Made by a program: the position numbers and the translations under genes
The notes under the pieces: generated by a model
What the model was told of the DNA's origin: nothing
Seen by the model: the letters and a program-made list of their open reading frames with translations, nothing else
The model's database searches: none
Assembly: GCA_965372215.1 (NCBI GenBank)
Contig: CBDVBK010000007.1
Coordinates: forward strand, 5,041 to 69,040
Length of the DNA stretch: 64,000 nucleotides
Direction: 5' to 3'
Origin: an uncultured bacterium
GTDB lineage: Bacteria; Fermentibacterota; Fermentibacteria; Fermentibacterales; JCC-6
In this document: positions 18,990 to 20,869 of the stretch, piece after piece
How positions within the stretch are numbered: position 1 is the stretch's first letter
Layout of the letters: every line of letters begins with the position of its first letter

Positions 18990-19805
18990 CTAGTCCCAGA
19001 TTCCCGGGAAATCCCGAATCATATTATATGTAAAAACAGGACCGTCCTTGCAGCAGTAGTAAGGTCCTATTCTGCAGTGGCCGCATTTTCCGAAACCGCA
19101 CGACATATTCTTCTCCATGGAGAGATAGATATTTCTGTCCTTCACCCCGAGTTCATTCAGTTTGAAAGTTGCAAATTTCATCATTATCGGAGGACCGCAG
19201 ACGACCGCTTTCACTCTGGAATAGTTCATATCAATGCCGTCCATGATCGATGTAACAAGACCTACAGGACCATTCCAGGTGTCATCACCCTCATCTACAG
19301 TAAGAACCATGTCAATATCATCGCGTTTCATCCAACCCTCAAGTTCCTTTCGAAAGATCAACTCTTTGGGATTTCTGCAACCGCCTCTGTAAACAAGTTT
19401 TGATAGTTTGTCACTTATGTGAAACAGATCGTACATCAGGGTGCGTATAGGAGCAAGGCCAACACCACCGCCGACAATAAGTACTTCCTGACCGATGAAT
19501 CTTATCATGGGGTATCCCTTGCCAAGCGGACCTCTTAAACCAACAGTGTCACCCGGTTTGAGCTTATGTATCTCATCGGTTACTTTCCCCACATTTACGA
19601 TGGTTATCTCCATCGTATCCTTTATTTCAGAGTCAGAAGACGGAGTGAATGGAGCCTCACCAAGGCCGGGAACCGAGAGTTCCATAAACTGGCCGGGCTT
19701 GAAGGTGAGTTCTTCCTTCGGCTTGAACATAAATGTCTTGATTGTAGGTGTTTCAGTTGTGACTTTGAGTACTTCGGCTTCTATGGAGCGATATGGATTT
19801 TTCAT
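18990..19805 (-). CDS. AsrB/HydG-like FAD/NAD(P)-binding oxidoreductase subunit with a C-terminal [2Fe-2S] site (PyrK family). Start trimmed to Met-30 at 19805.
   Basis: Ferredoxin-NADP reductase-like fold with an RxYS-type FAD-binding motif and GGGVGLAP in the NAD(P)-binding domain. C-terminal CGFGKCGHC...C. ATGA overlap with the upstream gene. Confidence 0.7.
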   Translation of the reverse strand: MKNPYRSIEAEVLKVTTETPTIKTFMFKPKEELTFKPGQFMELSVPGLGEAPFTPSSDSEIKDTMEITIVNVGKVTDEIHKLKPGDTVGLRGPLGKGYPMIRFIGQEVLIVGGGVGLAPIRTLMYDLFHISDKLSKLVYRGGCRNPKELIFRKELEGWMKRDDIDMVLTVDEGDDTWNGPVGLVTSIMDGIDMNYSRVKAVVCGPPIMMKFATFKLNELGVKDRNIYLSMEKNMSCGFGKCGHCRIGPYYCCKDGPVFTYNMIRDFPGIWD

Positions 19806-20869
19806 CTTTTTTGCGCACCCAGTTTTTCGAGTACCTGTCTTATATCGATTTTGCCCGGACATGCGGCTATACATCTTCCGCACCCTGTACATGCAATTTC
19901 ATCAGCTACAACAGGGAAATAATCAAACTTCTTTTCAAATCTGTTCCTAAACCGCATCCACAATCGATTTCTTGGATTCTCTCCTCCTGCCACCCGTGCG
20001 AAATCATTTATCATGCAGGAATCCCATATCCGGTATCTGGCCAGGCTGCCATCAGATTTCTGATCGTACAGAAGGAAACAGTGACATGTCGGGCAAATCA
20101 CATTGCATGCTCCGCATTCGACACAGGTGGCAGCTTCTTCGGACCAGACATCAGACTCGTAATACTTTCTGACAATGCGCTGGAGTCTTTTAACCGGCGG
20201 AATATTCCTCTGCCGGACATTTCTTTCGAGATGCTGCTTCACTGAAGAACGATTGTGGTCGCGGTGCCGTACCTGATCTTCTGTTGATTCCTGAAAAAGT
20301 CCGGCATGATCATCGATTACTTTCTGCCCTTTATCGCTTCCGATTTCTACGACAAAACCTTCATCGGTTTCCGACAGATTTATGTCGTATTCTGATTCGG
20401 GCCATGGATTAACACCCATCGCGGTACAGAAACAGGTTTCTGCAGCTTTTGTGCAGTCAGCAGAGATAATCAAACCATCAGTTCTTGCTTTAATATAGGT
20501 TGGGTCTCCGCATTCTTCATCCATGAAGACAAAATCAAGTATTTTGAGTCCTTTTAAATCGCATGATTTCACACCGACGATACATGGAGGTTTATCATTT
20601 CGGGGATTTTCAGGACTGAAATCAACAGCAACCTTCTCACGACCAAGAAAGTAAAAGGCTTTGAGCGGCTCGAATGACCTGATTTCTCCTATTACATAAT
20701 CTTCTTTTGATTCACCAAATGCAGTGAATGCAATACTATCCCCTTTTCGGGAAGGTACAAATACCCTGTAATCCCCCGAAAGGGATTCCAGAAGCTCAAA
20801 AAGACTACCCCGTTTGATGAAACGCATTGCAATGAAATAGAAATTGAGACCAGTTTTGTCAAGGGGCAT
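19802..20869 (-). CDS. AsrA/HydB-like [4Fe-4S] subunit (anaerobic sulfite reductase subunit A / sulfhydrogenase beta-like)
   Basis: Two ferredoxin-type motifs (CVECGACNVICPTCHC, CTGCGRCIAACP). Its size and its pairing with the AsrB-like gene match the AsrAB/HydBG architecture. Confidence 0.65.
   Translation of the reverse strand: MPLDKTGLNFYFIAMRFIKRGSLFELLESLSGDYRVFVPSRKGDSIAFTAFGESKEDYVIGEIRSFEPLKAFYFLGREKVAVDFSPENPRNDKPPCIVGVKSCDLKGLKILDFVFMDEECGDPTYIKARTDGLIISADCTKAAETCFCTAMGVNPWPESEYDINLSETDEGFVVEIGSDKGQKVIDDHAGLFQESTEDQVRHRDHNRSSVKQHLERNVRQRNIPPVKRLQRIVRKYYESDVWSEEAATCVECGACNVICPTCHCFLLYDQKSDGSLARYRIWDSCMINDFARVAGGENPRNRLWMRFRNRFEKKFDYFPVVADEIACTGCGRCIAACPGKIDIRQVLEKLGAQKR

Follow-up and report, generated by a model that had tools for sequence, protein, structure and literature searches.

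A HydBG/AsrAB-type flavin and iron-sulfur module at the head of a group-4 [NiFe]-hydrogenase operon in Fermentibacterota

Closest described systems

By the textbook account, group-4 [NiFe]-hydrogenases depend on ferredoxin, formate or CO. We analyzed an operon in which a hydrogenase of this group, of the Mrp-Mbh type, follows an asrA-like gene, an asrB-like gene and a polyferredoxin gene. The operon lies in a 64,000-nucleotide (nt) stretch of contig CBDVBK010000007.1 from an uncultured bacterium of the Fermentibacterota; this whole stretch is called the window below. Its closest named homologs, in Fermentibacterota (Ca. Aegiribacteria), are 82–89% identical. We consider it probable (about 0.6) that the products form one membrane complex, a Mrp-Mbh-type group-4 [NiFe]-hydrogenase with a dedicated NAD(P)H dehydrogenase input/output module recruited from the HydBG type. 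The basis for this reading is the gene content, the integrity of the cofactor motifs, the obligate co-occurrence of the two parts and the linkage to rex in relatives; from it we infer that the module is attached to the hydrogenase, that its substrate is NAD(P)H, that turnover is coupled to ions and in which direction it probably runs.

Pyrococcus furiosus Mbh (PDB 6CFW; HydDB group 4d) shares with the window operon the subunits MbhL, J, K, M, N and H and the Mrp-type small subunits MbhA-G. It uses free ferredoxin, lacks HydBG-like and HycB-like subunits and has one antiporter-type large subunit, whereas the window operon encodes a three-gene input module, a C-terminally extended MbhN and two antiporter-type large subunits, one MrpD-like (497 amino acids, aa) and one MbhH-like (567 aa). 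The second antiporter-type subunit hints that the ion/electron stoichiometry may differ from that of P. furiosus Mbh.

In the formate- and CO-dependent Mrp-Mbh enzymes of Thermococcus onnurineus (group 4b) and in Escherichia coli formate hydrogenlyase (FHL; 7Z0S; group 4a), a HycB/CooF-type ferredoxin wires a soluble catalytic module to the NuoI-like subunit, and the window operon encodes a ferredoxin of the same type. Further likeness to FHL lies in a 272-bit match to HycE, a HycE-like C-terminal extension of the large subunit and the presence of HycI. The input modules differ: FHL and the Thermococcus Fdh- or CODH-Mrp-Mbh enzymes use a molybdopterin formate dehydrogenase or a Ni-containing carbon monoxide dehydrogenase (CODH), and the window operon has a flavin/NAD(P) pair of HydBG type. 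That pair is homologous over its full length to the NADPH-oxidizing beta and gamma subunits of P. furiosus sulfhydrogenase I (9NEZ; group 3b), with the cysteines of HydB and the flavin adenine dinucleotide (FAD), NAD(P) and [2Fe-2S] motifs of HydG conserved. Unlike in sulfhydrogenase I, its partner would be a membrane-bound group-4 hydrogenase reached through a polyferredoxin, not a cytoplasmic group-3b alpha/delta dimer; the hydrogenase genes are of the MbhJ/MbhL type (group 4), not group-3b alpha/delta, in the window and in all related loci.

Two further systems are more distant. Salmonella-type AsrABC has the same AsrA and AsrB domain architecture, but both window proteins score under the cut-offs for that pair, and no AsrC siroheme subunit, and likewise no FdhH or CooS, was found among the open reading frames (ORFs) scanned in the window. 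The N-module of complex I (NuoEFG) may play an analogous role, as a flavin-containing NAD(P)H dehydrogenase that feeds an iron-sulfur (FeS) chain into homologs of NuoI, NuoB and NuoD. The two modules are non-homologous: NuoF binds FMN and has another fold, whereas the window pair combines an FNR/PyrK-type FAD protein with a HydB-type FeS protein. The acceptor also differs, being quinone in complex I and protons at a Ni-Fe site in the window complex.

The gene arrangement has been noted before in studies of metagenome-assembled genomes (MAGs). Genes like asrA, asrB and cooF were described beside an ‘enigmatic’ Mrp-Mbh of Saganbacteria and suggested to form ‘an oxidoreductase module’ (Matheus Carnevali et al., 2019; PMC6349859). 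A ‘Mbh-Mrp-oxidoreductase type’ was then named in Elusimicrobia, with its function stated as unknown (Méheust et al., 2020; bioRxiv 10.1101/765248). In these MAGs, as in the window, asrA-, asrB- and cooF-like genes are contiguous with Mrp-Mbh genes, and an Elusimicrobia locus (L033) is among the relatives of the window operon. The Saganbacteria RX5A version differs in having an FdhH-like molybdopterin subunit, which among the present loci appears only in variants such as L041. In other MAG studies the Mrp-linked enzymes of Omnitrophota, Cloacimonadota and Auribacterota are assigned to ‘group 4g’, with ferredoxin as the presumed partner, and a study of Hyd24-12 assumes ferredoxin for its membrane-embedded hydrogenase. 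The literature searched holds no explicit proposal of NAD(P)H coupling and no characterized NAD(P)H-dependent group-4 hydrogenase, a miss that is not proof of absence. The arrangement is already on record; it is a modular group-4 hydrogenase with an unusual input module that is probably NAD(P)H-linked.

Input module and hydrogenase core

Seventeen co-oriented genes on the minus strand, beginning with the asrA-like gene and ending at 8449, are separated by gaps of at most 39 nt. The first three make up the input module:

19802..20869 (−): asrA/hydB-like FeS subunit; 355-aa ORF with an N-terminal 4-Cys motif and a Fer4_22 dicluster domain
18990..19805 (−): asrB/hydG/pyrK-like flavoprotein, 271 aa, with FAD, NAD(P)-binding and [2Fe-2S] domains
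18441..18983 (−): HycB/CooF/AorA-type polyferredoxin, 180 aa (Fer4_11, 5e-12; 46 bits against a cut-off of 26)

The start codon of the asrB-like gene overlaps the stop of the asrA-like gene (ATGA), the polyferredoxin gene starts 6 nt past the asrB-like stop, and junctions of 6 nt and 7 nt occur in the operon. Frames that overlap or nearly abut, together with synteny kept across phyla, argue for co-transcription of the asrAB-like genes with the hydrogenase genes, and so against the separate transcription that the first-pass annotation had named as a refutation. A promoter and terminator scan of 8000..21600 found sigma-70 promoter-like sites at no more than the frequency expected from shuffled sequence, a result that is uninformative on internal promoters. 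A perfect hairpin with an 11-bp stem, followed by a T-rich tail, lies at 8954-8981, past the stop of the MbhN-like gene (9004) and ahead of the conserved part of hycI; possibly an attenuator or terminator, it would set the structural genes apart from the protease gene.

The AsrA-like protein contains Fer4_22 (Pfam, E = 4e-30) and matches three NCBIfam families over its full length: ShyB (5e-53), HydB (8e-45) and AsrA (9e-41). It remains under the equivalog cut-off of each (ShyB, 180 against 690; HydB, 153 against 750; AsrA, 140 against 323, tested with the anaerobic sulfite reductase pair TIGR02910/TIGR02911). The best PDB match is the beta subunit of P. furiosus sulfhydrogenase I (9nez_B; E = 4e-42, residues 20–344). 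An exact-protein look-up returned only a 1.5-kb ENA contig, with no further gene context.

Motif conservation was assessed in 39–42 orthologs from Fermentibacterota, Omnitrophota, Spirochaetota, Elusimicrobiota, Planctomycetota and others. In the AsrA-like protein 15 cysteines are invariant (39 orthologs), all of them common to HydB, which suggests enough ligands for three clusters and not two. Most orthologs (338–346 aa) start at the residue equivalent to Met15, so the true start is probably at 20827 and the first 14 codons (20827-20869) an extension of the annotated ORF. The first-pass annotation had described a HydB/AsrA-like protein with two [4Fe-4S] clusters, in a module fused at the head of the operon. 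Family and position are borne out, but the 15 cysteines suggest three clusters, and the two genes are adjacent and co-oriented at the operon head without any protein fusion.

The AsrB-like protein contains FAD_binding_6, NAD_binding_1 and DHODB_Fe-S_bind, each above the Pfam cut-off. Among NCBIfam models it matches AsrB best (2e-66), followed by HydG (3e-55). It too falls below the equivalog cut-offs (AsrB, 224 against 288.6; HydG, 187 against 650; ShyC, 160 against 600). No equivalog cut-off is reached by either protein; the pair belongs to the HydBG/AsrAB superfamily without being orthologous to either characterized pair. The best PDB match is the sulfhydrogenase I gamma subunit (9nez_C; E = 4e-55), end to end (3–271). 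A longer asrB-like ORF reaching 19892 lacks support, as the orthologs are 271–276 aa long.

The cofactor sites of the AsrB-like protein are intact. The FAD motifs GEAPFTPSS, GKVT and RGPxGxG[YF]P, the NAD(P) motifs GGGxGxAP and CGPPxM, and the four [2Fe-2S] cysteines all align with HydG and are each at least 95% conserved in 42 orthologs. The first-pass annotation had placed a HydG/AsrB/PyrK-like protein with FAD, NAD(P) and [2Fe-2S] sites here and had raised the possibility that the FAD/NAD(P) motifs might be lost on careful alignment. The Pfam domains, the 9nez_C match and the motifs agree with its description; the nucleotide-binding motif that it proposed to look for in 18990-19805 is present in both parts, and the motifs are invariant or nearly so in the 42 orthologs aligned.

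The polyferredoxin has 16 cysteines in four 4-Cys motifs (92–100% conserved in 39 orthologs) and is predicted to carry four [4Fe-4S] clusters. Its PDB matches are an AorA-type protein (8c0z_C), HycB3/HycB4 of the hydrogen-dependent CO2 reductase (HDCR) and HycB of FHL.

Downstream, the operon continues in the order MbhM/NuoH, MbhJ/NuoB, MbhK/NuoC, [NiFe] large subunit, MbhH, MbhD/E, MnhB, NuoK-like, a second MrpD-type subunit, MnhE, MrpF, MnhG, MbhN/NuoI-like and HycI:

17533..18447 (−): MbhM/NuoH-like membrane subunit (Pfam NADHdh, 3e-66)
17089..17511 (−): MbhJ/NuoB-like hydrogenase small subunit, proximal [4Fe-4S] (Oxidored_q6, 1e-26)
16616..17089 (−): MbhK/NuoC-like subunit (Pfam Complex1_30kDa, 2e-23)
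15432..16616 (−): [NiFe]-hydrogenase large subunit, MbhL/HycE-like (Pfam Complex1_49kDa and NiFeSe_Hases)
13732..15435 (−): MbhH/NuoL-like antiporter-type subunit, 567 aa (Proton_antipo_M, 2e-51)
9661..13718 (−): seven Mrp-type membrane subunits (Pfam domain matches), as follows
13718..13173 (−): MbhD/E fusion (Pfam MbhD, MbhE)
13176..12721 (−): MnhB (Pfam MnhB)
12721..12368 (−): NuoK/MrpC-like (Pfam Oxidored_q2)
12371..10878 (−): second antiporter-type subunit, MrpD, 497 aa (Proton_antipo_M)
10872..10357 (−): MnhE (Pfam MNHE)
10360..9992 (−): MrpF (Pfam MrpF_PhaF)
9999..9661 (−): MnhG (Pfam PhaG_MnhG)
9004..9621 (−): MbhN/NuoI/HycF-like 2x[4Fe-4S] subunit, 205 aa (Pfam Fer4_7)
8449..8970 (−): HycI-type maturation endopeptidase for the large subunit (Pfam HycI, 3e-14; TIGR00072, 101.6 bits against 47)

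These genes encode a genuine Mrp-Mbh-type group-4 [NiFe]-hydrogenase, because the Ni-Fe ligand motifs, NuoB-, NuoC-, NuoH- and NuoI-like subunits above cut-off and Mrp subunits occur in the same operon. Two CxxC motifs set true hydrogenases apart from Ehr, Mbx and complex I. Both are present in the large subunit (RICGICSTSH and DPCYCCTER), where they align to MbhL and HycE and are invariant in six diverse orthologs. The best PDB match of this subunit is MbhL (6cfw_L, 292 bits), and the MbhJ/NuoB-like subunit scores 130 bits against a cut-off of 116 for NuoB subfamily NF005012. The large subunit ends in a C-terminal extension of 35 residues, which by analogy with HycE would be the kind of tail removed by a HycI-type endopeptidase.

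The MbhN-like subunit matches HycF (7z0s_F) and MbhN (6cfw_N) in the PDB. Its residues ~125–205 form a clade-specific C-terminal extension of ~80 residues with the pattern CxxC...(58 aa)...CxxC. All 12 cysteines of the subunit are conserved in 49 orthologs, including the four in the extension, which could bind an additional metal or serve the polyferredoxin as a docking element.

Linkage in relatives, Rex and gene neighborhood

We examined the linkage between module and hydrogenase from both sides. Starting from AsrA, a scan of one genome per GTDB species gave 45 loci, which were annotated by tblastn with all 17 window proteins. All AsrA-derived loci with enough downstream DNA (within L002-L044) hold asrA-asrB-polyferredoxin followed by mbhMJKL-mbhH-mrp. 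The hydrogenase is missing only at two distant AsrA matches (28–32% identity). The loci span six or more phyla, with Fermentibacterota, Omnitrophota, Spirochaetota, Elusimicrobia, Planctomycetia/Pirellulaceae and a ‘Nitrospiraceae’ MAG.

Starting from the hydrogenase, we scanned JGI metagenome contigs with an alignment of the large subunit. More than 553 relatives were found and the best 80 (61–93% identity) were taken. Among these 80, all 37 loci with at least 4.4 kb of upstream sequence carry asrA, asrB and the polyferredoxin gene in the same order, and many of the shorter ones show the proximal part of the block. Because the linkage holds from the AsrA side and from the large-subunit side, the asrA-asrB-polyferredoxin module is an obligate part of this hydrogenase clade and not an accident of one genome. 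The co-occurrence of the module with group-4 hydrogenases in other genomes, which the first-pass annotation had suggested checking, is therefore complete in both directions.

Gene order varies elsewhere in the operon in nine loci, five of them from Spirochaetota (L017, L022, L025, L031 and L040; the others are L018, L023, L030 and L034). In some spirochaete variants mbhN and hycI come right after the large subunit and mbhM later; in other variants the Mrp genes lie upstream of asrA and are transcribed divergently. Every one of these variants keeps the asrA-asrB-polyferredoxin block unaltered.

A regulatory association was found in the relatives. Rex derepresses its targets as NADH/NAD+ rises. 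In 18 related loci (L013-L016, L020, L021, L027-L029, L035, L036, L038, L054, L055, L060, L061, L112 and L117) the immediate upstream neighbor of asrA is a rex gene on the same strand, its identity being given by Pfam Put_DNA-bind_N and CoA_binding and by NCBIfam Rex NF003995 (253 bits against a cut-off of 126). We also searched 1.54 Mb of loci for the Rex operator TTGTGAA-N4-TTCACAA with up to two mismatches. Sixteen of 24 boxes fall within −250 to +60 of an asrA or rex start (for example L024:9953, L117:5620 and L100:5805), a zone that makes up 1.6% of the bases and in which 0.39 boxes were expected (binomial P = 2e-23). Since rex and Rex operators stand at the start of the operon in relatives and Rex senses NADH, the association points to a tie between the operon and the NAD(H) pool, one that comes from the relatives. 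It favors an NADH-relieving, H2-evolving role, induced when NADH accumulates.

On the other side of the operon lie hydrogenase maturation genes:

921..2057 (−): hypE (Pfam AIRS/AIRS_C)
1961..3058 (−): hypD (Pfam HypD)
3055..3357 (−): hypC, probable (N-terminus MCLGVPG, typical of HypC)
3360..5669 (−): hypF (Pfam HypF domains)
5745..6092 (+): hypA (Pfam HypA)
6094..6765 (+): hypB (Pfam cobW)

Between hypB and hycI, at 6792-8399 (−), is a gene for a 535-aa polytopic membrane protein without a Pfam match. Upstream of asrA, a block of ~7 kb (20931-28013) separates the operon from SLT/TPR genes, which directly precede asrA in other Aegiribacteria (L006, L008 and L010). The block encodes a PAS hybrid histidine kinase/response regulator, a FIST protein, a B12-binding radical SAM protein, a FeeM-type N-acyl amino acid synthase and a 390-aa protein of unknown function, the kinase and the FIST protein being the upstream neighbors of asrA. 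It resembles an insertion and may be the source of a local regulator.

Electron path, alternatives and significance

In the proposed complex, electrons from NAD(P)H would pass to FAD and then to the [2Fe-2S] cluster, both within the AsrB/HydG-like subunit, and from there to the three FeS clusters of the AsrA/HydB-like subunit. The four [4Fe-4S] clusters of the HycB/CooF-like polyferredoxin, the presumed wire between the AsrA-like and MbhN-like subunits, would follow. Two [4Fe-4S] clusters in the MbhN-like subunit and one in the MbhJ-like subunit would complete the chain to the Ni-Fe site of the MbhL-like subunit. Through the MbhM/MbhH/Mrp membrane arm, H+ or Na+ would move in step with redox turnover.

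The standard potentials (E0') are −320 mV for NAD(P)+/NAD(P)H and −414 mV for H+/H2. NAD(P)H-driven H2 evolution is uphill above ~60 Pa H2. Because the flow from NAD(P)H to protons is endergonic above this pressure, the complex would either spend an ion gradient or conserve energy. In the first case, the gradient would be spent on pushing NAD(P)H electrons onto protons, giving fermenters a redox valve. In the second, the reaction would run from H2 to NAD(P)+ and ~18 kJ/mol would be conserved. A bolder proposal, to which we give somewhat less than an even chance, is that the enzyme is an ion-motive-force-coupled NAD(P)H:H+ oxidoreductase of an uncharacterized respiratory class, a ‘hydrogen-evolving complex I’ that gained its NAD(P)H-oxidizing module independently, from a HydBG-type ancestor and not from NuoEFG.

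The first-pass annotation had claimed an NAD(P)H-linked mode for a group-4 hydrogenase, and the intact motifs, the co-occurrence and the presence of Rex in relatives lend it comparative support. Homology, conservation and regulation together suggest NAD(P)H as the physiological partner.

Several points weigh against an NAD(P)H-linked membrane complex. The synteny fits a bound module and a soluble, co-expressed NAD(P)H:polyferredoxin oxidoreductase alike, and free ferredoxin could still donate to the MbhN-like subunit. In the window itself neither a rex gene nor a Rex box was found; four weak operator matches occur in it against 4.7 expected, none of them upstream of asrA. Rex regulons also take in ferredoxin-dependent hydrogenases, which makes the link to NADH indirect. 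A call between NADH and NADPH from the beta-2 loop of the AsrB-like protein was rejected: positions 140 and 144 are always Arg or Lys and no conserved acidic residue follows strand beta-2 in the aligned orthologs, but the conserved basic residues are suggestive only. The ‘GAR’ arginine is present in NADH-specific NqrF too. In one locus, a 581-aa ORF of molybdopterin fold (L041:1980-3725, +; weak PF00384 and PF01568) is inserted between asrB and the polyferredoxin gene, and three others (L096, L120 and L122) have similar extra spacing there; in lineages with such an insert (L041, Saganbacteria), the module may serve another substrate. Finally, the literature searched holds no evidence from biochemistry, structure or expression on any enzyme of the clade, although such a miss is not proof of absence. 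The L041 insert itself recalls the FdhH-like variant of Saganbacteria; an analogy with the degenerate molybdopterin domain of NuoG can also be drawn.

The likeliest alternative, which we nevertheless regard as improbable, is a ferredoxin-dependent Mbh beside a separate soluble NAD(P)H:ferredoxin or NAD(P)H:polyferredoxin oxidoreductase, made up of AsrAB and the polyferredoxin and co-expressed so that the NAD(P)H pool equilibrates with the low-potential one. Physical association is not provable by synteny alone. The MbhN-like subunit keeps the 2x[4Fe-4S] core that binds ferredoxin in P. furiosus Mbh, and published reconstructions have the Mrp-linked hydrogenases of Omnitrophota, Cloacimonadota, Auribacterota and Hyd24-12 oxidizing ferredoxin. 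However, the three-gene block is found in 37 of 37 metagenome loci and in ~40 of ~40 others, in constant order, at the operon head and with overlapping frames. Known HycB/CooF-type proteins, those of FHL, HDCR and aldehyde oxidoreductase (AOR), are stably bound subunits. Moreover, uncoupled reduction of low-potential ferredoxin by NAD(P)H is unfavorable without bifurcation or ion coupling.

We find it improbable that AsrAB is an electron-transfer scaffold for another substrate (formate or another molybdopterin-enzyme substrate, or sulfur/polysulfide), with its partner encoded elsewhere and the NAD(P) site secondary. The Saganbacteria FdhH-like gene beside asrA, asrB, cooF and Mrp-Mbh would fit this arrangement, as would the L041 ORF and the comparably spaced loci; S0-reductase activity has been attributed to P. 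furiosus sulfhydrogenase, and Aegiribacteria were described from a polysulfide-rich lake. Most other loci, however, leave no room for a gene between asrB and the polyferredoxin gene, and no molybdopterin, siroheme or CODH gene was found among the window ORFs scanned or, when upstream ORFs were clustered, upstream of asrA in 31 genome loci. Strict conservation of the NAD(P) motifs is unexpected for a vestigial site, and the association with Rex speaks for the NAD(H) pool.

Least probable of all, and purely speculative, is a three-way junction that ferredoxin enters at the MbhN-like subunit and NAD(P)H at the AsrB-like one, the two together yielding H2 as in a membrane analog of confurcating HydABC, or that in reverse distributes H2 electrons to both carriers: a potential ferredoxin site and an NAD(P) site are both present and two antiporter-type subunits suggest added coupling capacity, but there is no known bifurcating flavin site (NfnL/HydB-Bfu type), and in Nfn bifurcation takes place at a flavin other than the AsrB/PyrK-type FAD.

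If the clade is wired to NAD(P)H, current models of Omnitrophota, Fermentibacterota (Hyd24-12), Cloacimonadota and related uncultured phyla, which routinely show the Mrp-linked hydrogenase as a proton pump that oxidizes ferredoxin, mis-assign both the electron donor and the sign of energy coupling, for an enzyme with more than 553 matches in JGI metagenomes and a range of at least six phyla. The complex would be a case in nature in which a complex-I-like NAD(P)H module was assembled convergently on the ancestral hydrogenase core. It would also be a one-enzyme answer to an old problem, the re-oxidation of NADH with protons at non-negligible H2 pressure, in fermentation and syntrophy. A single complex could then spend an ion gradient on forming H2 from glycolytic NAD(P)H, or gain energy as H2 reduces NAD(P)+. 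The work otherwise done by Rnf and Ech/Mbh together, or by confurcating HydABC, would fall to this one enzyme in Fermentibacterota, Omnitrophota, Spirochaetota, Planctomycetota and Elusimicrobiota.

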